A DNA stretch of 61,151 nt, from IMG/VR virus record IMGVR_UViG_3300025168_000089, positions 1-61,151 of that record; one strand, given 5' to 3'. The notes under the pieces are model-generated. The model ran no database searches and had not been told where the DNA came from. It saw only the letters and a list, made by a program, of their open reading frames with translations. This document shows positions 13,339 to 61,151 of the stretch, one piece after another. Each line of letters begins with the position of its first letter. Position 1 is the first letter of the stretch. This DNA is from a virus (lineage: Duplodnaviria > Caudoviricetes). Both the position numbers and the translations under genes were made by a program.

Positions 13339-14211
13339 ATGGCAACAAGTAAAATACCTTTAGTACCAGGAACAAAGACTCTCGCAAGAGGATCTGTAGT
13401 TATAGGAAATGCAAGTGGCGAACCGTCAGCTTTAGCTATTGGTTCTAATACTTATGTATTAAAATCTGATGGCACGGATATTTCTTGGGGTGCGGATGCA
13501 GCAGGAACAGTTACAGGATATACAAACGGAGTAGACGACAGGGTTATAACATCAAGTGGTGCTACGACATTAAATGGTGAAGCTACTTTTACATATAGTG
13601 GAAGTCAGTTACTTGTAGATACTGGCGATAGTGCATCAAATGACGCAGTAAAAATAATTCATAGAGGTGGTTATAGAGGAGTAATGATTCAATCAGATTC
13701 TACTAATGATGGCACATCTAGTTTATATGTTAATGCAATAGGAACAGGCGATAGTGTAATAGGATTATTAAATGACACATCTACACAATGGATAATAAAA
13801 AATGATATAAGTGATTCACAAAGATTTTATATAACAGATGGTGATGGCGATGGTGTTTATATGAATCAAAATGCCACCTCTTGGACAGGAACATCAGACG
13901 AAAGAGTAAAAACTGATTGGAATAATATTATAAATGCAGTTGATAAAATAGACACATTAACTAAAATTGGAAAATTTAAAAGAAAAAAATATGATAAAGA
14001 AAACAACACAATTTCAACATATATTGATGAAGATAAAAAAAATAAAATACATTTAGGAGTATCAGCACAAGAAATTGAAGCAATATTACCAGAAGCAGTA
14101 ACAGAAGATGCTAATGGTATTAAGGGTTTATCATATACTAATTTAGTTCCTTTATTATTAAAAGCAGTACAAGAATTATCAGCTAAAGTAACAGCATTGG
14201 AGAATAAATAA
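13339..14211 (+). CDS. tail fibre with intramolecular chaperone (peptidase S74) domain
   Basis: SDERVK cleavage motif, GVSAQEIEAILPEAV, LVPLLLKAVQELSAKVTALE coiled coil. Confidence 0.85.
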   Translation: MATSKIPLVPGTKTLARGSVVIGNASGEPSALAIGSNTYVLKSDGTDISWGADAAGTVTGYTNGVDDRVITSSGATTLNGEATFTYSGSQLLVDTGDSASNDAVKIIHRGGYRGVMIQSDSTNDGTSSLYVNAIGTGDSVIGLLNDTSTQWIIKNDISDSQRFYITDGDGDGVYMNQNATSWTGTSDERVKTDWNNIINAVDKIDTLTKIGKFKRKKYDKENNTISTYIDEDKKNKIHLGVSAQEIEAILPEAVTEDANGIKGLSYTNLVPLLLKAVQELSAKVTALENK

Positions 14212-15353: not shown

Positions 15354-15683
15354 ATGGCACAATTATCAACTAAGGTAAAAGCGTATGTGGAAGCAGCAGG
15401 TAAGACTGTTGACTTTCAAAAAGACGTTCTCCTTCAGGATGACTCGCAAGGGGCAGGACCGTACATTAAGGAATGGAATATCGCAGGGCTAGCACAGCCT
15501 AGTGATGCCGATCTTGCCGTGCACGATGCCTCTGGAGATACAACTGAAGCGAACAACGTTGTGAGAAAAACACGCAAAACAGCTTATGGTGATATTGGCG
15601 ATCAGCTAGACGAGATTTACAAGGACATTGATTCTTGGAAGGCTCGTATCAAAGCGATCAAAGATGCAAACCCTAAGAGTTAA
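15354..15683 (+). CDS. tail fibre assembly chaperone-like protein
   Basis: YIKEWN, RKTAYGDIGDQLDEIY...IKDANPK; AAGGAGG SD. Confidence 0.7.
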   Translation: MAQLSTKVKAYVEAAGKTVDFQKDVLLQDDSQGAGPYIKEWNIAGLAQPSDADLAVHDASGDTTEANNVVRKTRKTAYGDIGDQLDEIYKDIDSWKARIKAIKDANPKS

Positions 15684-35086: not shown

Positions 35087-35163
35087 TTTTTACTTTCTTT
35101 AAAAATTTAATTATATATAAAGAATTATTATTATAAAGTAAAATTTTAATAGAAAGGAAAGAA
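35087..35163. promoter_or_regulatory. divergent promoter region
   Basis: Very AT-rich gap between divergent genes; AGAAAGGA SD on plus strand, AAGAAAG on minus. Confidence 0.55.
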
Positions 35164-38515: not shown

Positions 38516-39300
38516 AATATTTATTTTTTGACGTAGAAACAACTGGGTTATGGAAAAGAGATTTAGAAGCAACTGATCCTAAACAACCTAAAATAGTTCA
38601 AATTGCTGCTCAATTAACTGACAAAGATGAGAAAGTTTACGCACAATTAGCTTGTATAGTACAACCAGATAAATGGTCTATACCTAAAGAAGCTGAAGAT
38701 ATTCATAAAATAAGTGATAATATAGCTTTGCAATATGGTGTTCCTCTGATAAATGTATTAGGAATGTTTAATTCTCTAGCAGCACAAGCTGACGTATTAG
38801 TGGCTCACAATACATCATTTGATTTACAGATGGTATTAAGAGAATTTAATGCGATAGGAAAAAGTTTTAGGATTCCTAAAGAGCAACATTGTACGATGAT
38901 GACTGCTAAAGATATTTTAAAATTAGAAAGTAATTTTAATGACTATAAATTTCCTAAACTAGAAGAAACATATAAACATTTTTTAGGAGCAGGAGGATAT
39001 CATAATTGGCACGATGCTCTTACTGATATTATTATATGCCGAATAATCTACTTCCACATGAAAGCGAAAGGAATAAAAATGGAAAAACCACGTGCAATGC
39101 CTAAAGCATTAATTAAAAATTTGGACGAAAAAATATACAAAGAGTTTTTAAATCTTATAAAATTTATTAAAGAAGATACTTTAAATGATTGGGAAAAAGG
39201 TTTTCTTAAAGACCAAAAAGAAAGACATGAGAAATATAAAGAAAAAATACTTATGAGCGATAAACAAATGAATATATTAAGAAAGTTTAAAGATAAATGA
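38512..39300 (+). CDS. DEDDh 3'-5' exonuclease (DnaQ-like)
   Basis: FDVETTG, AHNTSFD, HDALTD. Confidence 0.9.
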   Translation: MKYLFFDVETTGLWKRDLEATDPKQPKIVQIAAQLTDKDEKVYAQLACIVQPDKWSIPKEAEDIHKISDNIALQYGVPLINVLGMFNSLAAQADVLVAHNTSFDLQMVLREFNAIGKSFRIPKEQHCTMMTAKDILKLESNFNDYKFPKLEETYKHFLGAGGYHNWHDALTDIIICRIIYFHMKAKGIKMEKPRAMPKALIKNLDEKIYKEFLNLIKFIKEDTLNDWEKGFLKDQKERHEKYKEKILMSDKQMNILRKFKDK

Positions 39301-40259
39301 GAGTATTAGTAACAGGTTGCGCTGGTTTTGTAGGATCACATCTTACAGAACATTTAGTTAATAGAGGAGATACTGTTTACGGTATAGATAATTTATTAAC
39401 AGGGCAAGAAAAAAATATAGGAAATTTGCATAGTTTTATAGAAGCAGATATTAGTAAAACTAATGATATGAAAGATATTATAAAACAAATTATAAATGAA
39501 GGACCTATTGATTTAATTTATAATTTAGCATGTCCTGCAAGTCCTGATCACTATATAAAACATTCTCTTAAAACTTTAGATACTTGTTATTTAGGAACTA
39601 AAAATATTTTAGATGCTGCGTTTTTAACAAATTCTATGGTCATACACACATCTACTTCAGAAGTATATGGAAACCCAGATCATAGCCCTCAAGAAGAAGA
39701 TTATTACGGAAGTGTAAATTCTTTTGGACCACGAGCATGTTATGATGAGGGTAAAAGAGTAGCAGAAGCACTTATCTATGAATATATTCGTTTATATAGA
39801 TTAGATATTAAAATAGCAAGATTATTTAATACTTATGGACCTCGTATGGCTGTTAATGATGGTAGAGTTATATCTAATTTTATTTGCGCTGCTTTAGAAA
39901 ATAAAGAATTATTATTATATGGCAATGGGCTTCAATCTCGTTCTTTTTGTTATGTATCAGATACAATACACGCTTTATTAGGGCTTGCAGAAACTACAAA
40001 ATTAAATAAACCAGTTAATATTGGCAACCCAGATGAAAAAACAATTTATAATATTGCTGAATTAATAATTGCAATGACTGATTCTAAATCAGGAATCATG
40101 ACAGTTGCACATAAAAAAGACGACCCTTTACAAAGATGTCCTAATATAGAAAGAATTAATATGTTATTAAATTGGAAACCAGAAATAACTTTAACAGAAG
40201 GACTAAAGAAAACCATAGAGTATTTTAGAAAATGTTTAATAAAGAAAACACCAACGTAA
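39297..40259 (+). CDS. uxs: UDP-glucuronate decarboxylase (UDP-xylose synthase), extended SDR
   Basis: GCAGFVG, LACPASP, TSTSEVYG, GPRACYDEGKRVAE, FNTYGPRM..DGRVISNF. Confidence 0.85.
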   Translation: MRVLVTGCAGFVGSHLTEHLVNRGDTVYGIDNLLTGQEKNIGNLHSFIEADISKTNDMKDIIKQIINEGPIDLIYNLACPASPDHYIKHSLKTLDTCYLGTKNILDAAFLTNSMVIHTSTSEVYGNPDHSPQEEDYYGSVNSFGPRACYDEGKRVAEALIYEYIRLYRLDIKIARLFNTYGPRMAVNDGRVISNFICAALENKELLLYGNGLQSRSFCYVSDTIHALLGLAETTKLNKPVNIGNPDEKTIYNIAELIIAMTDSKSGIMTVAHKKDDPLQRCPNIERINMLLNWKPEITLTEGLKKTIEYFRKCLIKKTPT

Positions 40260-41764
40260 TATTAGGTCCTCCTGGGACTGGTAAAACTACTTCATTACTT
40301 AATAAGCTTGAAGCAGAAATAGAGGCAGGAGTTAAACCTCGCACTATTGGATTTGTGAGTTTTACTCGCAGAGCCATTAAAGAATCACGAGAAAGAACTA
40401 TTTCTCGTTTTGATATTAATGAAGAAACAGATTTAGATTATTTTAGAACACTTCATAGTATTTGTTTTCGTTCTTTAGGATTAAATGGAAAACAAATATT
40501 TAAAGGAAGTCACGTTACTGAATTTAAAAAACTTTTAAAAATAGATATGTCAGGTGGAGTAGAAGAAGATGAAATAGTCACATCGGGAATAAAGATTGGC
40601 GATAAAATGTTATTTTGTGACCAATTAGCTAGAGCAATGATGAAACCTTTAAGAGATACTTGGAGAAGTTTAGATTGTGAATATTCATGGAAAGAACAAG
40701 AATTATTTTCTAATACATTTAGAAAGTTTAAAGAAAAAAGAGGACTATCTGATTTCACTGATATGCTTATAACTTTCTTAAAAGAAGGTGTAGCACCTCC
40801 ATTAAAAGTTTTATTTGTTGATGAGGCACAAGATTTAACGATACTTCAATGGAAAGTAGTGAGTAAATTAGTTGAGAATTGCGATAGATTATATATCGCA
40901 GGAGATGATGATCAAACTATTTATAAATGGGCGGGTGCTGATATTGATACATTTCTAAATCTTAAAGGTAATATAGAAGTGCTTCCTTATAGTTATAGAT
41001 TACCTTCTAAAGTTTATGATTTAGCAATCGAGATTAGCTCACGTATAAAAAACAGATTTGCAAAAGAATGGAAAAGCAGAAAAGAAGAAGGTACTGTTAA
41101 TTATGTATCTGCTATAGAATATATAGACATGAAAGAAGGACCATGGCTCATCCTCTCTCGATATAATTATCAACTTTATTCAATTCAAAAATTTTTAAAA
41201 ACTCAAGGATTTGTGTTTGAAAACAAGTACGGAGGGTTTAAAGCTAATAAGCATGTTCAAGGAATTAGAGCATGGAAAAAACTTATGAATAAAGAAAAAA
41301 TTGTATATGAAGAAATAAAAAAACTATATTCTTGTTTACGAACAGGAAGTGGTATAGAAAGAGGATTTAAGAATTTAAAAACTATTGACGGAGATATAAT
41401 TAATTATCATAAAGAAGAATTTGATTTAGAAAGTTTAAGAATGCACCATGGGCTAAAAGCTAAAGGTAAATGGCAAGAAGCATTAGAGATGATTCCAGAA
41501 GAAGATAAATATTATTATGAAGCTTTAGAAAAAACTGGAGATATAAATGAAGATAGTCCACGAATACGATTAAGTACGATACATGGAAGTAAAGGAGCAG
41601 AAGCTGATAACGTAGTATTACTCACTGATGTTTCTTATAAAACTTGGAAGAATTTAGTTAAAGATGACGATGATGAGCATCGTGTTTTTTATGTAGGAAT
41701 TACACGAGTAAAAAATAATTTATTTATTGTAAATCCTCAAACTGAATATAGTTATAGGATATAA
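40232..41764 (+). CDS. UvrD/Rep-like SF1 helicase
   Basis: GPPGTGKT, TLHS, VDEAQD, GDDDQTIY, STIHGSKGAE, YVGITR. Confidence 0.92.
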   Translation: MFNKENTNVILGPPGTGKTTSLLNKLEAEIEAGVKPRTIGFVSFTRRAIKESRERTISRFDINEETDLDYFRTLHSICFRSLGLNGKQIFKGSHVTEFKKLLKIDMSGGVEEDEIVTSGIKIGDKMLFCDQLARAMMKPLRDTWRSLDCEYSWKEQELFSNTFRKFKEKRGLSDFTDMLITFLKEGVAPPLKVLFVDEAQDLTILQWKVVSKLVENCDRLYIAGDDDQTIYKWAGADIDTFLNLKGNIEVLPYSYRLPSKVYDLAIEISSRIKNRFAKEWKSRKEEGTVNYVSAIEYIDMKEGPWLILSRYNYQLYSIQKFLKTQGFVFENKYGGFKANKHVQGIRAWKKLMNKEKIVYEEIKKLYSCLRTGSGIERGFKNLKTIDGDIINYHKEEFDLESLRMHHGLKAKGKWQEALEMIPEEDKYYYEALEKTGDINEDSPRIRLSTIHGSKGAEADNVVLLTDVSYKTWKNLVKDDDDEHRVFYVGITRVKNNLFIVNPQTEYSYRI

Positions 41765-41765
41765 T

Positions 41766-42440
41766 ATGAGTAACGATAAAAGAATAGATTACTTGAATAG
41801 TTTTCAAAATAAAATAGATAGCGATATTTATAGCGAACCTAAATCTCAATTACACTATAGTGTAATAAAGCCTCAAGCACAAAACTTTTTAAATCAATTC
41901 GGAATTAAAGAAGATAAATCAGTTATAGATATAGGTTGTGGAGATGGTTATTTTTTATCTTTGTTAAAAGAAAATGGATTTAAAGATTTAGCTGGAGTTA
42001 CTAAAGGCAAAGAAGATATTACTAATTGTGTTGATAAAGGAATAAAAAAAATATATGATACTGATATGACATTTACTCATATTAAAGAACAATACGATGT
42101 TTTATGGTGCCGGCATTGTCTTGAGCATAGTCCATATCCTTATTTAACTTTGCATGAATTTAATCGTTTAGTTAAAATGAATGGCTATGCTTATATAGAA
42201 GTTCCCGAAGCTGAAGGATATGTTAAACATGAGAATAATGCAAATCATTACTCTATGTTAACGAAAAGAAATTGGGTATCTTTAATTTTACGTTGTGGAT
42301 TCGATATAAATAGAATACAAGATATTGATTTAAGTATTAGAAATAAAGATTTTCAAGATGGACACCCCTATCCCGAGCAATGGTGGGCTTTTTATTTAAC
42401 TAAAACAATTGATTTAAAATTTATGGAAGGAAAAATATGA
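41766..42440 (+). CDS. class I SAM-dependent methyltransferase
   Basis: VIDIGCGDG, RHCLEH, GYAYIEVP. Confidence 0.85.
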   Translation: MSNDKRIDYLNSFQNKIDSDIYSEPKSQLHYSVIKPQAQNFLNQFGIKEDKSVIDIGCGDGYFLSLLKENGFKDLAGVTKGKEDITNCVDKGIKKIYDTDMTFTHIKEQYDVLWCRHCLEHSPYPYLTLHEFNRLVKMNGYAYIEVPEAEGYVKHENNANHYSMLTKRNWVSLILRCGFDINRIQDIDLSIRNKDFQDGHPYPEQWWAFYLTKTIDLKFMEGKI

Positions 42441-43498
42441 AAGCAATAGGAAGTTATATATTCGCTGGAGGGTTTACTATTGGCGTTAAAAAACATTTTG
42501 ATATTGAGGCACATTTAGAAGGTGATGGAGCGTACGGAGCAGACACATTTTCTTTAAATTATCCAAATATACCTATATTTGAAGGACCAGATAATTGGCC
42601 TATAGAAAAATATAAAGATAAAATAGATTTTGTGTATGGTAATCCCCCTTGCGCTCCCTGGAGTACGTTAGGTTCAGGAAGTAAAGGAGCAGATGGTTGG
42701 AAAACTGATCCTCGTATTAGTTGTTGGAACGATGTATTTTCTTTACTTTATAAAATAAGGCCTAAAGTTTTAGCTATTGAATCAGTTCCCCGTGTTTTTT
42801 CAGAGACAGGAGGTAGACCAATGATAATGGATTTTACTAAAAAAGCTAATGAAGAAGGTTACGCCGTTACACATTTATTAGTAGATGGACAATATACGGG
42901 ACTTCCTCATTCAAGAAAACGATTTTTCTTTTTAGCACATAAAGGAAATTTTAATCCTCCTGCTCCTAACTGGAATCCTGCACCAAATGTAGGAGAAGTA
43001 TTAGATGAATTAAAAGCAGATGGAATTGAAGCAGGTCATACTGCAACTTTAAGTGAAAATGAAATGAAATTAACTAGAATGGCTAAACCTGGAGAATCAT
43101 TGAGAAATATATGGGAAAGTTTAAATCCCCCTGAAACTTGGAAAAGGTCACTTAAAGGACGTAAAGGAGTTATAGGTAGACCTCAATTTATGAAATGGAG
43201 ATTAACTCGAAAACAAATAATGGGAGTTATTGCAGGAAGTTTTTCTATTCACCCTGAAGAAGATAGACTTTTAGGAATACAAGAACTCTGCGCTTTTTGT
43301 GGATACCCAACAGATTATAAATTTTCAGGAGCAAAATCAGGGTGGCCTAGTTTATTAGCTAGAGGAGTAATGCCTCCAGTAGGTGAATGGTTAGCTAGAA
43401 ATGTAAAAGCAATGATAGAATCTAATTCGGGATTTGAAGTTAATCATAAAGTTATAGATTACCGTAAACCAACAACAGGAGATTTATTTAATGCTTAA
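42437..43498 (+). CDS. C5-cytosine methyltransferase-fold protein with atypical SAM motifs
   Basis: GNPPC (IV), IESV (VI), SRKR (VIII), RLLGIQEL...GYP (IX); motifs I and X divergent. Confidence 0.8.
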   Translation: MKAIGSYIFAGGFTIGVKKHFDIEAHLEGDGAYGADTFSLNYPNIPIFEGPDNWPIEKYKDKIDFVYGNPPCAPWSTLGSGSKGADGWKTDPRISCWNDVFSLLYKIRPKVLAIESVPRVFSETGGRPMIMDFTKKANEEGYAVTHLLVDGQYTGLPHSRKRFFFLAHKGNFNPPAPNWNPAPNVGEVLDELKADGIEAGHTATLSENEMKLTRMAKPGESLRNIWESLNPPETWKRSLKGRKGVIGRPQFMKWRLTRKQIMGVIAGSFSIHPEEDRLLGIQELCAFCGYPTDYKFSGAKSGWPSLLARGVMPPVGEWLARNVKAMIESNSGFEVNHKVIDYRKPTTGDLFNA

Positions 43499-43871
43499 AG
43501 ATATAGAAGAATTTCATAAAAAATTTGGATTTGAAAAAAGAGTGGGTATCAAAAATAATAAAAATTTGGTAGACTTTCGGATTAAATTCTTAGAAGAAGA
43601 ATTAAGAGAATTTAAAGAAGCAATTAAAGAAGAAAATGATGCAAAAGCATTAGATGCTTTAGTTGATTTAACATATGTAGCTATAGGAACAGCTTATCTT
43701 TTTGATTATCCGTTTTGGGCTGCTTGGACAGAAGTACAGAAAGCTAATATGGCAAAAGTAAGAAAAGAAAGTGAACGTTCAAAATTTGATGTAATAAAAC
43801 CTAAGGGTTGGAAAGCACCTAATATTGAACAAATAATAAATATATTTAAAAATTGGAAGGCATGGTCATGA
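43491..43871 (+). CDS. MazG-like all-alpha dNTP pyrophosphatase (dCTPase/dUTPase candidate)
   Basis: EFHKKF, EEELREF, DALVDLTYV, EVQKANMAK, KPKGWKAP. Confidence 0.85.
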   Translation: MLKDIEEFHKKFGFEKRVGIKNNKNLVDFRIKFLEEELREFKEAIKEENDAKALDALVDLTYVAIGTAYLFDYPFWAAWTEVQKANMAKVRKESERSKFDVIKPKGWKAPNIEQIINIFKNWKAWS

Positions 43872-44911
43872 AAGTATTAGTAACAGGATTTACTGCTAAA
43901 GGTATAGGCAGTGGTAAAAATGTATTAGAGATTGCAACAGCAGCTAATTGTTTACCAAGAGCATTAAGAGAATGCGGAATAGAAGTGGATCATAAGTCAG
44001 TTACTCCGGGAGATGATATATCAGAATATGATAAAGTAGTAGTATTTGCTTTTGCTCCTAATTCTTTACCGTCATCTTATTTATATGGAGGTCTTTATAC
44101 TTTATTGAAAAGACCAGACGCATATATAGCATTAGATGATTGGCAAACTAAAGATATAAAACAAGGATGTGGTACTTTTGCACGTGACGGACATTGGAGA
44201 TTATGGAAAAGAGTAAGTAAAGCAGGTAACTCTGTGGGTAAAAAATTCTTTCATGAAGCACAAGCTTATAAAAAAGAAATGGAAGATTTAATTACTCAAT
44301 TAGCTTTTGAAAAATGGCCATATAAAGTACTAGCACCAGTTTATAAAGGTGGAGATGTATCTCAATTAGGGATAGATTCCAAAGAAATAATACCATGGGA
44401 TCCAACTCCTGTTACTGATAGTTATAAAGCAGGAAGTAAATATAATCAATCTTTATTTTCAAGTATAAATAGTATTCCTGAAGTTAAAGAAAAAGAATGG
44501 ATCATGGCTTCTTTAATTCAAAAACAAAGTTGGTTTAAACGACAAAAATTCGAATGGCCTGTAACTTGTTATGGTAATCCAAATCTTAATCAACGAAGAT
44601 TAACTGAGCCCGATTTATATAATGAATATTTAAGAGTGAGGGGAATATTAATACCTCCTCATTATCATACGATAAAAGGAAGTGGTTGGTGGAGAGTTCG
44701 TTACGGAATGATAGCAGACGCAGGTTGCATAGCTTATGGAGAAACTGAAGAAACTAAATTATTTGGAGATTCTTATCAAGTATCTTTATCTGATATAGAA
44801 AAAATGAATGATAGTGAATTAAATGATTTAGCTGAAATTCAAAAAAAAGATTTTAATTCTACAGTATGGAATAAAAATAGATTAAATACTTTTATAAGCG
44901 ATTATTTTTAA
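43868..44911 (+). CDS. GT-B DNA glycosyltransferase-like (T4 beta-glucosyltransferase-like)
   Basis: About 350 aa like T4 BGT; DISEYDKVVV, YIALDD, WRVRYGMIADAG and DLAEIQK align by eye with BGT segments as I recall them; located among nucleotide-modifying genes. Confidence 0.6.
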   Translation: MKVLVTGFTAKGIGSGKNVLEIATAANCLPRALRECGIEVDHKSVTPGDDISEYDKVVVFAFAPNSLPSSYLYGGLYTLLKRPDAYIALDDWQTKDIKQGCGTFARDGHWRLWKRVSKAGNSVGKKFFHEAQAYKKEMEDLITQLAFEKWPYKVLAPVYKGGDVSQLGIDSKEIIPWDPTPVTDSYKAGSKYNQSLFSSINSIPEVKEKEWIMASLIQKQSWFKRQKFEWPVTCYGNPNLNQRRLTEPDLYNEYLRVRGILIPPHYHTIKGSGWWRVRYGMIADAGCIAYGETEETKLFGDSYQVSLSDIEKMNDSELNDLAEIQKKDFNSTVWNKNRLNTFISDYF

Positions 44912-45516
44912 TGAGAGATACATCAAATACAGTGAAAGGAATTATTATAGTAGAAGGTGCAGACTGTACGGGTAAAACTACTTTAACAGATTTATTTCGT
45001 AAAAAATTTAAAGCGAGATATATGCACTTACGAATTCATAAAAAAATGGAAGTATGGCATACTGCTACTGTTCGTAGAGCAATTAGATTAGCTAAAAATG
45101 AATTAGTTGTAATCGATAGACATTGGCCATCAGAAGAAGTTTATTCTTATGAAAGAGCAGATGGACCTGAATATAATCCTTTAAAACTTTATAAAAAATT
45201 AAAAAAAGCAAATACATTATATGTATGGTGTGCTCCTGAAGATAGTGCTAAAGTTATACGAACACATAGAAAAAAGAAAGAAGAACGGCATGAAGAATAT
45301 AGTGATATTACTCGAATTGTTGATAGATACAAACGTTCATGGTATGGTTTAAACTATGAGCATAATAACTTTCTTAAATCTCTAGGGGAATTAAGATGGC
45401 GAAAAAACTTCATACGATATGACGTTTTTAAAGAAGGTCATAAGATTGATAATAAATCTTATGATATAATTAATCGACTACGATATTTGAGAGGAGAAGC
45501 AGTATGGACGGTTTAG
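44911..45516 (+). CDS. dNMP kinase (thymidylate kinase-like)
   Basis: IIVEGADCTGKTT P-loop, VIDRHWPSE. Confidence 0.85.
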   Translation: MRDTSNTVKGIIIVEGADCTGKTTLTDLFRKKFKARYMHLRIHKKMEVWHTATVRRAIRLAKNELVVIDRHWPSEEVYSYERADGPEYNPLKLYKKLKKANTLYVWCAPEDSAKVIRTHRKKKEERHEEYSDITRIVDRYKRSWYGLNYEHNNFLKSLGELRWRKNFIRYDVFKEGHKIDNKSYDIINRLRYLRGEAVWTV

Positions 45517-46304
45517 CAGCAGATAATGTTTGGAATGATGCTATTTTAGATATTCAAGGAGGATTAAAATCATCGCCTCGTGGTATGAAAACACGAGAAA
45601 AAATAAATCATACTACTATGTGTGATATGCGATATCCTATCGTTACTAATAAAAAAAGATTATTAGGCTATAATTTTATGGTACAAGAAGCTATTTGGAT
45701 ATTAAGGGGTGATAATAGATTGAGCACGATAAAACATTATTCTAAAATAATTAGTAAATTTAGTGATGATAAATATTTCTTTAGAGGAGCTTATGGTCCT
45801 AAAGTTATAGACCAACTTCAGTATGTGTGTCACGCACTAAAAGAAGATAGAAACACGAGACAAGCAGTTATAAATATTTGGAGAGAAAGTCCATATGCGA
45901 CTAACGATATACCTTGTACTATATCATTTCAATTTTTAATTCGTGAAGATAAATTACATATTATAGCTAACATGAGGTCTAATGATTTATGGTTAGGCTG
46001 GCCTTACGATAATTTTAATTTTTCTATGCTCGGCGCATACGTTGCTTTATTATTAAAAGACATATATAATATAGAAGTGGGACTAGGAATAACGACTATT
46101 AATGCAGGGTCACGTCACTTATATGAACCTAACTTTGAGTCAGCAGATATGTGTACACATTCTAATTATGAAGATTATGTTAACTATAAACCATTGAATT
46201 TAAAGGATTATACTAGTGCAGAAAATTTCTTAGACCATTTAGAATTTGTATCTTTACCTAACTCTAAAGGATTTGCACATGAATTTTTTAATGAGACCAA
46301 ATAA
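45504..46304 (+). CDS. thymidylate-synthase-fold enzyme, probable dCMP hydroxymethyltransferase
   Basis: GAYGP, TRQAVI, DIPCT, MRSNDLWLGWPYD (Asp at the dUMP-specifying Asn position), GSRHLY. Confidence 0.8.
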   Translation: MDGLAADNVWNDAILDIQGGLKSSPRGMKTREKINHTTMCDMRYPIVTNKKRLLGYNFMVQEAIWILRGDNRLSTIKHYSKIISKFSDDKYFFRGAYGPKVIDQLQYVCHALKEDRNTRQAVINIWRESPYATNDIPCTISFQFLIREDKLHIIANMRSNDLWLGWPYDNFNFSMLGAYVALLLKDIYNIEVGLGITTINAGSRHLYEPNFESADMCTHSNYEDYVNYKPLNLKDYTSAENFLDHLEFVSLPNSKGFAHEFFNETK

Positions 46305-46740
46305 GAACGAAACTTTTTTAGACATTGCCCAGACAGTATCGGAACAAGCAACATGCATCCGGCGTAATGTTGGGTGTGTGTTAGTTAATTCAAAAAATCA
46401 TATTCTTGCGACAGGGTATAACGGAGTTCCTGCAGGAGCAGTGCACTGTTTAGATTTACCTTGCGCTGGAGCAGAACTTCCATCAGGAGAAGGATTAGAT
46501 TCTTGCGAAGCGATTCACGCAGAGCAAAATGCATTACTTCAATGCAAAGATATTTATGATATTGAAAAATGTTATTGCACAGTAAGTCCGTGTATGACGT
46601 GTGTTAAATTATTATTAAACACTTCTTGTAGTATTTTAATTTTTCCTACTTTATATACTGATACAGAACCATTAGAACTTTGGAAAAAAGCAGAAAGAGA
46701 GTATATTATTTATGAACGACTTATTCAAACCCGTCAGTAA
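46279..46740 (+). CDS. dCMP deaminase
   Basis: TCIRRNVGC, TGYNG, HAEQNA, SPCMTC zinc motifs. Confidence 0.92.
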   Translation: MNFLMRPNKNETFLDIAQTVSEQATCIRRNVGCVLVNSKNHILATGYNGVPAGAVHCLDLPCAGAELPSGEGLDSCEAIHAEQNALLQCKDIYDIEKCYCTVSPCMTCVKLLLNTSCSILIFPTLYTDTEPLELWKKAEREYIIYERLIQTRQ

Positions 46741-49811: not shown

Positions 49812-50075
49812 ATGGTTCGTATCACGTGGTTAGATGCCCGTGATACGGAAACTGGTTGGCTCGATATAAAAGATGTTATCGATGCGCCATTAGCGTTATG
49901 TCAAGAAGTCGGCTGGATGGTTACCAGTAATGAAGATAAAGTAGTTATCATGCGTTCTTATAGTAAAGATAAAGATGAAGTATCGGGCGGTGGAGCTATT
50001 GCTATACCTAAAGGTTGGGTTAAAAAAATAGAATATTTAGAGGTATCATATGGAGAAAGAAGCGATAATAGGTAA
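49812..50075 (+). CDS. conserved hypothetical phage protein
   Basis: VRITWLDA...GW...IPKGWVKKI. Confidence 0.7.
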   Translation: MVRITWLDARDTETGWLDIKDVIDAPLALCQEVGWMVTSNEDKVVIMRSYSKDKDEVSGGGAIAIPKGWVKKIEYLEVSYGERSDNR

Positions 50076-50754
50076 TGTCTTTGGCAAAACGATTTATAAA
50101 TCGTCAATCAAGGGTCATCAATATTTAAATAGTAAAGTCAAACCTCTCATTGAGAAGTTTGTAAAAGAAAAACCAGGAACTGTAGCGGCGACTACAGATG
50201 TTAAAGGTAATCTTAAAGCAACGATATTAGAAAATGCTATTGATGATTTACATTTACAAGATGACTATAAAGAATTGTTCGATGCATTAGCTTTTGATAT
50301 AAAAGGATTTATGGCGGCGAAGTCTTATGACGATAGTAAATTTGATATAAATATTACGAAAGCATGGGCTACGTTTACATCGAAAGGTCAAAATATCCCA
50401 TCACATAAACATACGGCATCACATTATAGTTGTGTTTATTATGTGCATAATGAAGGTATGGGAGATATTAAATTTGAGCAAGAACTTTATTCACACGATG
50501 GATTTTTTATTCCACCAACAGATGCTTATATTAAAGAATGGAATCAATTTAATTTTGCGAGTTATAAATTTGAAGTAAAGTCAGGAGATTTTATTATATT
50601 TCCTAGTGGCTTACTTCATCAAACTGAAACGAATACGAAAGACACTCCACGCATAAGTATTTCGGCGGATATTCTTTTGACTATGAGAGAGGGGGTTAGC
50701 ACAGAACATTGTATTCCAAGTCCAAAAAGTTGGAAAACAATATATACTTCATAA
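50050..50754 (+). CDS. 2OG-Fe(II) oxygenase-like protein
   Basis: HKH, SCVYYV, FPSGLLH, RISIS. Confidence 0.85.
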   Translation: MEKEAIIGNVFGKTIYKSSIKGHQYLNSKVKPLIEKFVKEKPGTVAATTDVKGNLKATILENAIDDLHLQDDYKELFDALAFDIKGFMAAKSYDDSKFDINITKAWATFTSKGQNIPSHKHTASHYSCVYYVHNEGMGDIKFEQELYSHDGFFIPPTDAYIKEWNQFNFASYKFEVKSGDFIIFPSGLLHQTETNTKDTPRISISADILLTMREGVSTEHCIPSPKSWKTIYTS

Positions 50755-57690: not shown

Positions 57691-58128
57691 ATGGATAACA
57701 TTATAGAATTTTCTGAGGTCGAGAATAAGATTTTATCTGACAAAGAAAAAAAATTCGTTAATAACATTATCTCTGGTTTACCTAAGAGAAAAGCGGCTTT
57801 AGAGGCGGGTTACGCCGAATCTTCTGCTCACGTACAAGCCACTCGCTTACTAAAGAAGGATAAAATCCTGAGGGCGGTGAGCCGAGGGCGTGCGGTCCAT
57901 CAGCAGCAGTCTATTCACACCTTAGACAAGGAGGTTGAGAAACTTGACGTGTTGTATGAGGCGGCCGTAGCGAAAAAACAACTGGGAGCCGCCGTCCAAG
58001 CTGCGAGGTTGAAGGCCCAACTCTTGGGGTACTTGGTTGAGAAGAAAGAAGTTAAACACTCCGTCCTTGACACGATGAGCGATGATGAATTGATCACCTA
58101 CCTTGACAAACTATCCTCAGCAGGTTGA
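57691..58128 (+). CDS. terS: terminase small subunit
   Basis: LSDKEKKFV...AALEAGYAESSAHVQATRLLK HTH; AVQAARLKAQLLG. Confidence 0.85.
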   Translation: MDNIIEFSEVENKILSDKEKKFVNNIISGLPKRKAALEAGYAESSAHVQATRLLKKDKILRAVSRGRAVHQQQSIHTLDKEVEKLDVLYEAAVAKKQLGAAVQAARLKAQLLGYLVEKKEVKHSVLDTMSDDELITYLDKLSSAG

Positions 58129-58437: not shown

Positions 58438-58824
58438 ATGTCTCAGAATAAAAAATTTCCTACTAGCCTTAAGGTGTTAGAAGGACGCGCAATAATGTTT
58501 CTTTTTGTTAACCAAAAGAAACCATCAGGAAAAGCTTACGCAAGATACGAGCACTATAAAACAGCGCACAGTATCGCAGAAGCGGTGGACCGAGGCTTTA
58601 CAGCTTTAGACATGCAATACGAAACGAAATCTAATGGGAGATTTAAAAAATTTGTTACCATGTGTTTTATCGAAGGCGTCAATATAACGAAAGACACCAA
58701 AGATATTTTAACCGTGGTTATCAAAAAGAATAGAGAAGTACTCAAAGAGTTACCGAAAGCTATTCAAGCCAAAGCACAGGCAAACATCGAGAAATTCGAG
58801 AAATTAGCCGCAGCTATAAAATAA
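58438..58824 (+). CDS. basic early protein, NxK(R/K) family copy 2
   Basis: NKKFPTSLKVL...VNQKK; TATAAT promoter, AGAAAGGAG SD, own terminator. Confidence 0.85.
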   Translation: MSQNKKFPTSLKVLEGRAIMFLFVNQKKPSGKAYARYEHYKTAHSIAEAVDRGFTALDMQYETKSNGRFKKFVTMCFIEGVNITKDTKDILTVVIKKNREVLKELPKAIQAKAQANIEKFEKLAAAIK

Positions 58825-58831
58825 CATTACT

Positions 58832-58863
58832 CGGGGGCGTCACACAGGCGCCCTCGTTTTTTT
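58832..58863 (+). terminator. intrinsic terminator
   Basis: CGGGGGCGTC-ACACA-GGCGCCCTCG plus T7. Confidence 0.85.
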
Positions 58864-58865
58864 GT

Positions 58866-58951
58866 GCTTGAGCATTGAGCCACCGCACTCCGCCGCCTTG
58901 CGGTTGAGCATTAAGATTAAGTCATTGAGCATTGAGCATCAACCCTCCGCC
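58866..58951. repeat. GC-rich repeat block B
   Basis: GCTTGAGCATTGAGCC (58866, identical to 58213), CCGCCTTGCGG, further TTGAGCA units. Confidence 0.75.
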
Positions 58952-58973
58952 TTAGACTTACGTGTAAGTCTAA
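58952..58973. repeat. near-perfect palindrome
   Basis: TTAGACTTAC-GT-GTAAGTCTAA. Confidence 0.8.
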
Positions 58974-59091
58974 TAATAAATAAATACAAATAATAAAATA
59001 TAAAATACTAAACCAAACTAAAATTTTAACGATTTTATATCTGTTTAAAACTAAAAATAAATAATTTATTATAAATATAGAAAGGAAAATT

Positions 59092-59148
59092 ATGACGATT
59101 TTAATTATAATAATCGCTTATTTTTTAATAATAAGCTTTACTTTTTAA
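59092..59148 (+). CDS. 18 aa hydrophobic peptide
   Basis: AGAAAGGA SD; MTILIIIIAYFLIISFTF; SD and ATG retained inside the depleted zone. Confidence 0.65.
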   Translation: MTILIIIIAYFLIISFTF

Positions 59149-59192
59149 TAAATAGTCTATAAAAATATAGATAGAAAGGAGAAAAATAGAAA

Positions 59193-59591
59193 ATGGAAAA
59201 TAATAGTAATAAAAATAAAAAATTTCCTTCTTCGTTAAAAGTATTAGCGTCTAAAAAAATTCTTTTTAGATTAGTTAATATTAAAAGAGAAAATACTCGT
59301 TCGTTCGATATTTTCGAAGAAGCGAAATTTTCGACTACTATTAAAGATTTATTTACTTTAACGAATTATCGTAAAGTAGATTATTCTTACGATACTAAAG
59401 AGAATAATCGCTTTTCTACTATACGTTTAATAGTAGAAAATAAAAACGATACTAAAGAAAATAAAGAAGAATTAAAAACTATTATCGAAGAAAATAAAAA
59501 TTTCTTAAACGATAAAGATAATAAAATTCTTAATAGAAAATCTATAGAAGAAAATATTAAATTCTTCGAAGAAAAAATTTCTAGTCTTTAA
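59193..59591 (+). CDS. NxK(R/K) family copy 3, recoded without CA/TG/CC/GG
   Basis: NKKFPSSLKVL...VNIKR; no Gly, His, Gln, Cys, Trp or internal Met. Confidence 0.85.
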   Translation: MENNSNKNKKFPSSLKVLASKKILFRLVNIKRENTRSFDIFEEAKFSTTIKDLFTLTNYRKVDYSYDTKENNRFSTIRLIVENKNDTKENKEELKTIIEENKNFLNDKDNKILNRKSIEENIKFFEEKISSL

Positions 59592-59614
59592 TTACTAAAT
59601 ATATATTTAATAAT

Positions 59615-59648
59615 AAATCTCTCTAATTAATTTTAGAGAGATTTTTTT
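59615..59648 (+). terminator. intrinsic terminator with CT/AG-only stem
   Basis: AAATCTCTCTAA-TTAATT-TTAGAGAGATTT plus T tract. Confidence 0.75.
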
Positions 59649-59809
59649 ATTTTTAAAATTAGTAATCGAATAAGAAAAAATAAATCGTATTAAGTTTAAT
59701 CGAAAAAATTAGTATAAGTTTCTTTTTAGAATTTAGAAAAGTTGGTGGATTAAGCGTAAGCTTTATCACTATTGACTGTTATATGTATAAATAAAATATA
59801 TTATATATT

Positions 59810-60040
59810 GTGATTAAAGTGTGGTTATTATATTTAGTTATCTCTATGCCTAATATGCCTTCTGTAAAAACAAATTCTTTTTTGTATATTTCAGAAGAAA
59901 AATGTATGGAAGTCCTTGTTTCTTTTATGAATGTATATGAATCTAAATCTGAAGAATATAAAAAAAATTTAAAAACAACAGGATATTGTTTACCCTTTGA
60001 ATCATTTCCTATAAAAGGTATACATAACTTTAATTTATGA
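59810..60040 (+). CDS. hypothetical protein
   Basis: 76 aa, hydrophobic N-terminus, two Cys, ATGA overlap with terL. Confidence 0.65.
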   Translation: MIKVWLLYLVISMPNMPSVKTNSFLYISEEKCMEVLVSFMNVYESKSEEYKKNLKTTGYCLPFESFPIKGIHNFNL

Positions 60041-61151
60041 AACAGGAATTAGTACAGAAAGCTAAAAATATTTTATTAGATCCGAAAGTTTCCAAAAATG
60101 TAAAAGAACAAGTTTTCGAAATATTAGAGAAACAAAGAACAAAGGCCACTAATAGTGCCGCAAAATCTGGAATTTTGGATTATTCTAAACATATGTACCC
60201 TGGATACAATACTCCTGCTCATATAAAACTTATTGGACAAAACCTAGAAAGTTTAGAGAAAGGTGAGATTGATAGATTAGCTATCTTTATGCCACCACGA
60301 CATGGTAAATCTATGTTATGCTCAGAATTTTTTCCTGCATGGTACCTAGGCCGTAATCCTAGAAATTTTGTTATTCAAGCAACTTATGCTCAAGAACTCG
60401 CTGATGATTTTGGACGCAAGGTGCGTAACCAATTAAAATCAGAAGATTATATGAGAGTCTTTGAGGGTGTAGGTCTAAGAGATGACTCTAGCTCAGCTAA
60501 GAGATTTCACACAGTTCACGGTGGAACGTATAGCGCAGTCGGTGCGGGTGGTGCTATTACAGGTAGAGGTGCACATTTATTAATTATCGATGATCCTATA
60601 AAAGGGCGTGAAGAAGCAGAATCCGCACTTCAGAGAAGAAACTTAATCGAATGGTATAAAGCAGTCGCTTACACGAGATTACAGCCAGGAGGTAAAGTTA
60701 TCTTAATTCAAACTCGATGGCACGAAGATGATTTAGCTGGATGGATATTAGAGAACTCAGGTGAAAACTGGAAAGTTTTAGACCTACCAGCGATAAACGC
60801 AAATGGTGATGCTTTGTGGCCAGAATCATATCCCTTGCCCAAATTAGAAAAAATTAAAGCTACAGTCGGCGATAGAGTATGGGAGTCATTATACCAGCAA
60901 CGCCCAACGGCAGAGCAAGGCGCTATACTCAAGAGAGATTGGTGGCGTAAATTGGATCACGAACCTCAATACGATTTTATCGTTCAAAGTTATGATACTG
61001 CTTTTAGTACGAGAGAGTCTGCTGACTTTTCAGCAAGAACGACATGGGGAGTATTCTCACGAGTTAATGAAGAAGGTCTCATAGAAGCATGTATACATTT
61101 AATCGAAGCGTGGAAAGACAGAGTAGAGTATCCTGATTTAAGACGTATAGC
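60037..61151 (+). CDS. terL: terminase large subunit (runs off window end)
   Basis: Own translation: MPPRHGKS Walker A, GRGAHLLIIDDP Walker B, QTRWHEDDL, VQSYDTAF nuclease motif. Confidence 0.95.
   Translation, partial: MKQELVQKAKNILLDPKVSKNVKEQVFEILEKQRTKATNSAAKSGILDYSKHMYPGYNTPAHIKLIGQNLESLEKGEIDRLAIFMPPRHGKSMLCSEFFPAWYLGRNPRNFVIQATYAQELADDFGRKVRNQLKSEDYMRVFEGVGLRDDSSSAKRFHTVHGGTYSAVGAGGAITGRGAHLLIIDDPIKGREEAESALQRRNLIEWYKAVAYTRLQPGGKVILIQTRWHEDDLAGWILENSGENWKVLDLPAINANGDALWPESYPLPKLEKIKATVGDRVWESLYQQRPTAEQGAILKRDWWRKLDHEPQYDFIVQSYDTAFSTRESADFSARTTWGVFSRVNEEGLIEACIHLIEAWKDRVEYPDLRRI

Follow-up and report, generated by a model that had tools for sequence, protein, structure and literature searches.

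IMG/VR record IMGVR_UViG_3300025168_000089 (Caudoviricetes) was analyzed over its whole length, and this linear stretch of 61,151 bases, with an estimated completeness of 99%, is termed the window below. Between its small and large terminase genes lies a zone of 700 bp (59043–59742) that is almost devoid of the dinucleotides CA, TG, CC and GG, in other words of any cytosine followed by A or C on either strand. The features of the zone follow one another in the manner of a small expression cassette, all on the plus strand: a promoter-like hexamer pair with 9/12 matches at the left edge (59044–59072), an open reading frame (ORF) for an 18-codon hydrophobic peptide (59092–59148), an ORF for a protein of 132 amino acids (aa; 59193–59591), a terminator-like hairpin with a stem built from allowed dinucleotides only (59615–59644), and two copies of a GTAT(T)AAGTTT motif placed 17 bp apart (59687–59721), still inside the purge. 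An unpurged paralogue of the 132-aa protein is encoded just upstream (58438–58824, plus strand, 128 aa), and a predicted cytosine-modification module is found at 42437–46740 (plus strand).

Extent, strength and conservation of the purge

A scan of the whole window found none of the four dinucleotides across 59227–59742, leaving a gap of 517 bp; the next longest gap of this kind elsewhere in the window is 72 bp. Within 59228–59743, all 45 C are followed by G or T (20 CG and 25 CT), and all 56 G are preceded by A or C (36 AG and 20 CG). The six exceptions lie within 59043–59226 (GG at 59084, TG at 59093, GG at 59178, TG and GG at 59194–59195, and CC at 59226) and correspond to two ribosome-site GG, two ATG, one of them ATGG, and a single proline CC; the ribosome-site GG and the ATG of the hydrophobic peptide account for two of them. 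At the other end the purge stops at a TG (59743), a few bases past the second GTAT(T)AAGTTT motif. An earlier note made from the sequence alone had given the approximate C and CG counts, the same exceptions and the abrupt end, and all are borne out.

The purge is far beyond chance. Shuffling the bases of the 516 bp gave an expectation of 50.4 ± 5.0 occurrences (minimum 32 in 10,000 shuffles) against zero seen. The earlier note had also proposed a comparison with shuffled codons, and this too set the zone apart: the same 132-aa protein written with the codon usage of the genome would carry 25.7 ± 4.0 occurrences (minimum 12) against one seen, and synonymous shuffling inside the ORF gave 13.4 ± 2.4 (minimum 4). 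The 151 non-coding bases past the ORF (59592–59742) hold none, against 11.1 expected. At the left, the stretch 58961–59091 is not significantly purged (6 seen, 9.2 expected), and the zone proper is therefore taken as 59043–59742. In the remaining genome the four dinucleotides occur at odds of 0.94–1.10, and about half of the window's cytosines (52%) precede A or C. The zone is 80% A+T (20% G+C), compared with 33% G+C for the genome. None of the other intergenic regions of the window is purged; the 77-bp divergent region at 35087–35163 (10% G+C), which separates a minus-strand SNF2 helicase gene from a Pam3 gp32-like gene, has one of the four dinucleotides versus four expected, a difference that is not significant.

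The 132-aa protein is written without CA, TG, CC or GG apart from the one CC, and it uses an alphabet of 15 amino acids, with no His, Gln, Gly, Cys, Trp or internal Met and a single Pro, that of the CC. Its predicted model is confident (pLDDT 89.9), and it has no match in Pfam, PHROGs, a PDB sequence profile, Foldseek searches against PDB and BFVD, or the protein atlas. Cultured phages likewise yielded no similarity match, whether the query was the zone DNA or the 132-aa protein; the closest cultured terL relatives are just 42–49% identical. The upstream paralogue is related to the zone ORF at 30% identity (BLASTP, E 4e-18) and matches the family alignment A1 with an hhalign probability of 98%, and its composition is ordinary (27 CA, 11 CC, 11 TG and 11 GG; 37% G+C). 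The same arrangement, an unpurged copy followed by a mostly purged one, is present in the complete relative G016.

Relatives were scanned for purged runs at 91 loci (95 were examined, four of which turned out to be pieces of the window). Runs of at least 80 bp free of all four dinucleotides are present in 41 of the 91, the longest measuring 973 bp. The ORF family is found at 120 of 167 loci, and 45 of the 77 distinct ORF cores of relatives have at most one CA or CC together with at most one TG or GG. The family is large: a database search returned 1151 clusters at E ≤ 0.001, and among the best 120 of these none has an informative name or a Pfam domain, while 102 of the same best 120 lack His, Gln, Pro, Gly, Cys, Trp and internal Met. 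A search with a DUF2786 protein for related loci reached only close relatives, and G010, which was searched for the ORF family only, gave none. Upstream of the main ORF, each of the 16 relatives examined has a small ORF for a hydrophobic peptide.

The purge holds while protein identity within the family drops to 36–47% (about 60% divergence), and it extends to signals for translation. In many lineages the ribosome-site GG is swapped for AGTAG, AGAAG or AGCGAG, and L039 (973 bp) and L040 (885 bp) have no exception at all, and hence no NTG start codon; their conserved ORF lacks ATG, GTG and TTG, and its apparent start is ATA. Since the ORF is intact and conserved, and since the purge is kept despite the divergence of the protein, the purge is taken to be under selection, acting on the DNA and overriding protein and translation signals, and is not a mutational scar. 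The exception-free zones of L039 (1689–2661) and L040 (1–885) contain two units. Each shows a word resembling a ribosome site (AGCGAG), what appears to be an ATA start, and the terminator hairpin common to both; the second is a Lys-, Asn- and Ile-rich ORF of about 50 codons.

Restriction-site flanks and the predicted modification module

The earlier note had proposed that cytosine is marked in CA and CC contexts, and the same rule was recovered independently from the flanks of restriction sites across whole genomes. A GATC was classed as unshielded when it had the form [AC]GATC[GT], in which the terminal C of neither strand precedes A or C. The window has 112 GATC, and the sole unshielded one (28 expected) is CGATCT at 15509; the other 111 are shielded on at least one strand. 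The corresponding counts in relatives are 1 of 128 in G001, 5 of 125 in G012 and 3 of 114 in G013, with none in G003 (56 sites), G018 (148), G019 (139), G020 (137) or G011 (126). Pooled, 10 of 1193 GATC are unshielded in 11 genomes of clades A and B, compared with 98 of 706 in four relatives that lack the modification module (Fisher p 5.5e-33). Among GATC with A or C as the 5' flank, the 3' flank is A, C, G or T in 64, 25, 1 and 1 cases in clade A, and in 157, 58, 6 and 2 cases in clade B, which indicates that A and C both shield the site and that G and T do not.

Other sites follow the rule to differing extents. GANTC obeys it in clade B (3 of 464 unshielded) and not in clade A, and for GTAC it is partial in clade B (40 of 765 unshielded). 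CGCG, in which the cytosines always stand before G, occurs twice in the window (26385 and 58486) against about 31 expected, and zero or one time in each of G001, G016, G020 and G011; it is not avoided anywhere in the L039/L040 lineage. The flanks of GCGC were considered as independent evidence and dropped, because the result equals the absence of AGCGCT, which is also lacking in the genomes without the module. The flank tables of those genomes (G006–G009) list one AGATCT and no GGATCC or AGCGCT, and this avoidance of 6-mers is ordinary restriction avoidance in another host.

Purged zones of the family were pooled as 28 non-redundant runs (13.8 kb; the figures for GCGC and GC come from a 13.6-kb pool). 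Exposed sites are scarce in them: GATC occurs once (33.8 expected), GAATC once (17.3), GATTC never (16.2), GTAC three times (15.4) and GCGC never (7.9). Retained are TCGA (132), AGCT (50), CTAG (31), TTCGAA (35) and ATCGAT (21), and GC itself is not purged (158 in 13.6 kb, odds 1.36). The simplest reading of these patterns is that a restriction-blocking modification would sit on the base pair formed by a C with A or C after it, and none on that of a C before G or T, and that the hosts of separate lineages impose separate restriction enzymes. A zone with neither shielded-class cytosines, on both strands, nor exposed sites points to selection to stay unmarked. Restriction avoidance alone has no reason to purge shielding contexts, which argues that the absence of the mark is the selected trait.

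The predicted module contains a C5-methyltransferase-family enzyme (PF00145, 92.2 bits) that has the motifs FAGGF, PPCAPWS (with the catalytic Pro-Cys), ESV and RKRFFF, and whose best solved-structure match is the carboxymethyltransferase CmoX (entry 8YF3). Its other members include a MazG-like pyrophosphatase, a dCMP deaminase and a ThyA homologue that is nearer to CMP 5-hydroxymethylase (E 7e-19) than to the best thymidylate synthase (1e-13). An Asp of this homologue aligns with the Asp of the 'WPYD' of CMP 5-hydroxymethylase, a position that we take to set C versus U specificity. A dNMP-kinase-like protein scores 29.3 bits with PF13521, but stays below the cut-off both for PF02223 (25.4 bits, cut-off 27) and for the NCBIfam dTMP kinase model (35.6 bits, cut-off 83). 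A GT-B-like protein has a model of moderate confidence (pLDDT 68.8), which Foldseek matches to SenB GT-B enzymes (E 2e-4) and to the T4 alpha-glucosyltransferase 1y6f (TMq 0.45, but E 0.28); Pfam and NCBIfam searches gave no hit for it. Together these genes would point to cytosine as the target. Any one of these enzymes could be the reader of the 3' neighbor, and all C may first be replaced, with only a later step being context-specific.

Module and zone co-occur in all ten genomes that cover both regions (G000–G003, G011, G014, G015, G016, G017 and G020). Left out of this count are G012 and G013, which have the zone but do not cover the module region, and G018 and G019, which have the module and break between terS and terL; G004 and G005 were dropped because their resemblance to the window is confined to terL and the portal protein. 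That relatives without the module should also lack the zone, as the earlier note expected, was found in four of four cases (G006–G009); these PolA-based relatives are distant (41–44% identity, 48–50% G+C), and the shared absence gives weak support. The modification cluster of that note was drawn more widely, and the conserved module is the part that stands. A dTDP-glucose-4,6-dehydratase-like (dehydratase/epimerase) gene, a class I S-adenosylmethionine (SAM) methyltransferase and a PF13759 2-oxoglutarate (2OG) oxygenase (39297–42440 and 50050–50754) are present in clade A and partly in G016 and G017, but are missing in clade B and so are not conserved with the zone; they may elaborate a sugar. 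At the module in G011, G014, G015 and G016–G020 the PF13759 oxygenase has no match. Of 2OG oxygenases only PF13759 was found, so that a TET/JBP-type dioxygenase was not, and the SAM-methyltransferase-like gene had no hit to a CmoA model.

Possible reasons for a probably unmarked cassette

The zone is probably a modification-free cassette shaped by the phage's own mark on C before A or C, and we lean slightly towards the fuller statement, in which transcription by host RNA polymerase is the reason. A restriction-blocking mark would be placed on C before A or C on either strand, on about half of all cytosines, and cytosines before G or T would be left unprotected. The 700-bp zone would form a self-contained expression cassette that runs from a promoter through the genes for a small membrane-like peptide and the 132-aa protein to a terminator and the following promoter-like pair, and it would have been rewritten with no C before A or C on either strand and hence carry none of the phage's own marks; it would also have shed the GATC, GANTC, GCGC and GTAC sites that such marks otherwise shield. 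Most likely, host RNA polymerase could then transcribe the cassette, unaided and without delay, from the fully modified chromosome as it comes in. A mark could harm a template in two ways: its bulky adduct might hinder the polymerase, both at promoters and along the template strand, or it might expose the DNA to damage by host enzymes directed at modified bases.

A strand asymmetry in relatives bears on the part played by polymerase. In the ORFs of partly relaxed relatives the ratio of sense CA/CC to TG/GG is 26:0 in L037, 20:2 in L021, 21:2 in L008 and 11:2 in L009, and the NNC|G codon junctions are kept. Sense CA and CC thus return and TG and GG do not, which suggests that modifiable cytosines come back last on the template strand. 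In the in-vitro work of PMC11550810, bulky major-groove groups inhibit the RNA polymerases of E. coli and B. subtilis at promoters, and T7 RNA polymerase is inhibited more by groups on the template strand than by those on the non-template strand. Group transfers of such a kind usually occur late, before packaging, according to the relevant part of PMC13326640. Taken together, the asymmetry and these portions of the two papers favor a cassette that is readable from a decorated incoming chromosome. The claim of the earlier note, that the unit must stay unmarked for host polymerase to read it, thus divides in two: that it has to stay unmarked is supported, the exposed sites being gone, and the polymerase reason would follow from the asymmetry and from what these parts of PMC11550810 describe.

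Several points weigh against this explanation. We infer the existence of the modification, its seat on C and not on the paired G, and its link to transcription, all from sequence alone, and a modification of G on the opposite strand would yield the same pattern. The baseline of the asymmetry is itself uneven, as the unpurged paralogue has 38 CA/CC to 21 TG/GG; upstream stretches of L021, L008 and L009 show the opposite bias, and L013, L028, L049 and L239 are relaxed with no strand bias. Promoter-like hits are no more frequent in the region than in shuffles. If the mark blocks polymerase, the explanation does not account for the transcription of the remaining incoming genes, no other intergenic region being purged. 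A ThyA-type pathway would replace all C, and this fits poorly with unprotected CG and CT unless a later step is context-specific. Clade C (G016 and G017) has the module but shows no GATC flank rule (129 of 455 unshielded) and only a partial purge, and the zone of G011 is moderately relaxed with the module present. In G003 the C5-methyltransferase homologue (C1:9129–10179; L098 and L099) is split into two overlapping frames with a TGA inside, through either a frameshift or an assembly error, yet the zone and the flank rule of this genome are intact.

A bolder version, which we consider doubtful though worth stating, would make the cassette the sole part of the hypermodified incoming chromosome that host RNA polymerase can read, and the 132-aa product a pioneer factor that either permits decorated DNA to be transcribed or replicated, or disarms enzymes attacking decorated bases. 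Such a cassette would be a phage 'boot sector' whose DNA alphabet is reduced and whose amino-acid alphabet has 13–15 letters, and the specificity of the modification, read from the base 3' of the cytosine, would be new.

The close rival of the polymerase explanation, unlikely in our estimate, is that an unmarked cassette escapes host defenses that recognize modified bases, such as type IV nucleases and glycosylases, and that an anti-defense gene can still be expressed from it during the attack. The context rule and the evidence for selection to be unmodified apply equally here, a purge biased towards the template strand would also result if that strand suffered abasic sites or nicks, and glycosylase defenses against decorated hydroxymethylcytosine are described in the pertinent section of PMC13160076. 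However, the 132-aa protein is unlike any known anti-defense protein in the searches given above, and the purged set is identical across lineages under differing restriction pressure (pressure on GANTC is confined to clade B, and L039/L040 tolerate CGCG). A cost intrinsic to the phage fits this constancy better than variable host enzymes do.

Plain restriction avoidance, the alternative raised in the earlier note, would have the zone as an unprotected leader that avoids host restriction motifs. Restriction pressure is real, judging from the genome-wide avoidance of CGCG, and the zone is without GATC, GANTC, GCGC and GTAC. Even so, the explanation is improbable. No restriction enzyme reads two bases, and a union of sites cannot remove every CA, TG, CC and GG; TCGA, AGCT, CTAG, TTCGAA and ATCGAT persist in the pooled zones, and nothing indicates that the zone enters first. 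A C before A or C shields sites elsewhere in the genome, so that purging it runs counter to avoidance, and the loss of exposed sites from the very same zone argues against the alternative as well.

Likewise improbable, and marginally more so, is that the zone must be unmodified for another protein–DNA event, either packaging initiation beside the terminase genes or the unwinding of an AT-rich element at a replication origin. Its position between terS and terL, beside repeat arrays, and its A+T content would suit either role. Several long contigs also break close to the zone, and G018 and G019 lose the region altogether at such a break. The purge, however, tracks a conserved gene codon by codon, from the promoter-like stretch to past the terminator, and the repeat arrays are unpurged and full of GG, CC, TG and CA. 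The contig breaks, for their part, are explainable by poor coverage of AT-rich DNA. Contig ends within about 2 kb of the zone were seen at the end of G001, G002 and G013 and at the start of G011 and G012; they may reflect poor coverage of DNA with 80% A+T, repeats, or real genome ends.

Selection at the level of RNA, in which the transcript would avoid the dinucleotides cleaved by an endoribonuclease, much as ACA-less mRNAs avoid MazF, is very improbable: sense UG and GG are indeed the best-kept part of the purge in relaxed relatives, but reverse complementation maps the purged set exactly onto itself, the purge runs about 95 bp beyond the terminator, and the same context rule holds for restriction sites genome-wide and on both strands. 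The mutational footprint of a context-specific cytosine deaminase has hardly any claim at all, for although conversion of CA into TA and of CC into TC would reduce G+C, as seen in the zone, the ORF is open and protein-conserved over about 60% divergence, the exceptions are exactly functional (start codons and ribosome sites), TA is not enriched (odds 0.97–1.0), and the roughly 4-fold enrichment of CG, which arises at NNC|G codon junctions, speaks for selection.

If the preferred explanation of an unmarked, polymerase-readable cassette is true, site flanks and a purged island would together give the target context of an uncharacterized hypermodification in uncultured marine phages from sequence alone. 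The cost of modification would be large enough to force the rewriting of a gene, at the loss of six amino acids, the ribosome-binding GG and, in one lineage, the ATG. It would also provide a handle on the old question of how the first genes are expressed from hypermodified phage DNA. Both scans, for islands free of a set of dinucleotides and for restriction sites retained only in certain flanking contexts, are transferable and could predict contexts without chemistry.

Comparison with known systems and flanking features

One system of similar gene content is the glucosylation of hydroxymethylcytosine in T-even phages, which relies on a ThyA-homologue dCMP hydroxymethylase, a dNMP kinase, a dCTPase and DNA glucosyltransferases; the window has cytosine-type ThyA homologue, kinase-like, MazG-like, dCMP deaminase and GT-B-like genes side by side. 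It differs in that the protected class is set by a 3' neighboring A or C, in the presence of a C5-methyltransferase-family enzyme in the conserved module, and in that not all cytosines would be protected, judging from the avoidance of CGCG and the purge of unshielded GATC, GANTC and GCGC. In T2 and T6 roughly one in four hydroxymethylcytosines escapes glucosylation, with neighboring bases deciding which, and we know of no T-even phage that keeps a region purged of its own modifiable contexts.

Early regions poor in restriction sites are found in the gene 0.3 leader of T7 and the first-step-transfer DNA of T5. These resemble the zone in being short units with few or no host sites that may be expressed first, but they avoid particular sites of 4–6 bp, whereas the zone drops two whole base-pair steps, pays with six amino acids and sometimes the ATG, and gives evidence of avoiding the phage's own mark. 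ACA-less mRNAs, which escape MazF, are also coding sequences rewritten without a short target word; there the target is RNA, a single trinucleotide and one strand, whereas the set purged here is symmetric on both DNA strands and includes non-coding DNA. In concept only, vertebrate CpG islands are comparable as promoter-associated islands with a modification state unlike that of the bulk genome. They keep the modifiable dinucleotide and stay unmethylated via protein factors, whereas the zone deletes the dinucleotides from its sequence.

Clusters with a C5-methyltransferase, 5mYOX and glycosyltransferase, and those with CmoA and CmoX, share with the window a C5-methyltransferase-family enzyme beside a glycosyltransferase-like gene, as well as a very short context motif. 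CmoX, the best solved-structure counterpart, is described in the part of PMC12783734 that concerns it. According to the portions of 10.1101/2023.12.21.572611 and PMC12783734 on specificity, the published C5-methyltransferase-directed enzymes prefer GC, whereas the zones keep GC and the context proposed here is C before A or C; the window is also without a TET/JBP-type oxygenase or a CmoA model hit. A full-text literature search found no described dinucleotide-purged or modification-free phage region. The purged zone appears to be a new kind of feature, and the context rule proposed here a new variant of context-specific phage DNA modification.

Upstream of the cassette, the small terminase subunit gene (57691–58128, plus strand) was identified by PF03592 Terminase_2 (E 3.9e-9, 37.7 bits, cut-off 26.1). 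The paralogue that follows it is closed off by a G+C-rich, terminator-like hairpin (58832–58856, plus strand) that would end the preceding operon; terminator-like hits in the region number 3, against 1.4 ± 1.4 in shuffles. Downstream, the exact GTAT(T)AAGTTT pair is unique within the window and is conserved in L008, L009, L021, L037, L039 and G016. GTATWAAGTTT does not recur in the rest of the window (6 matches allowing at most one mismatch, 8.4 expected), and the pair could represent the -35 and -10 elements of the next promoter. RNA library X18 contained two 151-nt contigs inside the zone at a depth of 2, and libraries X19 and X20 two contigs over the upstream paralogue, which in neither case is proof of transcription.

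The large terminase gene (60037–61151, plus strand) is truncated by the end of the record, the 3' end of which breaks within terL, and the record has no end repeats. In the relative L006 (3259–4935), about 1.7 kb separate the counterparts of the window's last base and of its base 18; the record is thus without the 3' part of terL, and probably also short of one further gene.

Between the hairpin and the zone, direct repeats of the TTGAGCAT type form an array, after which comes a palindrome of 22 bp (58866–58973); this is a putative operator or packaging site. Relatives have repeat arrays at the equivalent site (L038 1–60, L041 120–230 and G016 13560–13620) that use clade-specific words, namely TTGAGCAT, GGATCA with CTTGACG or CTTGTTG, and TTGATC, and these arrays could likewise be operator or packaging sites. 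Clade B carries additional GAAC(G/A)AAACGAGAAC repeats between the small peptide ORF and the main ORF, which are missing from the window's zone; they are located at 270–300 in L038, 460–510 in L041, 335–350 in L011, 470–510 in L037 and 445–475 in L021.

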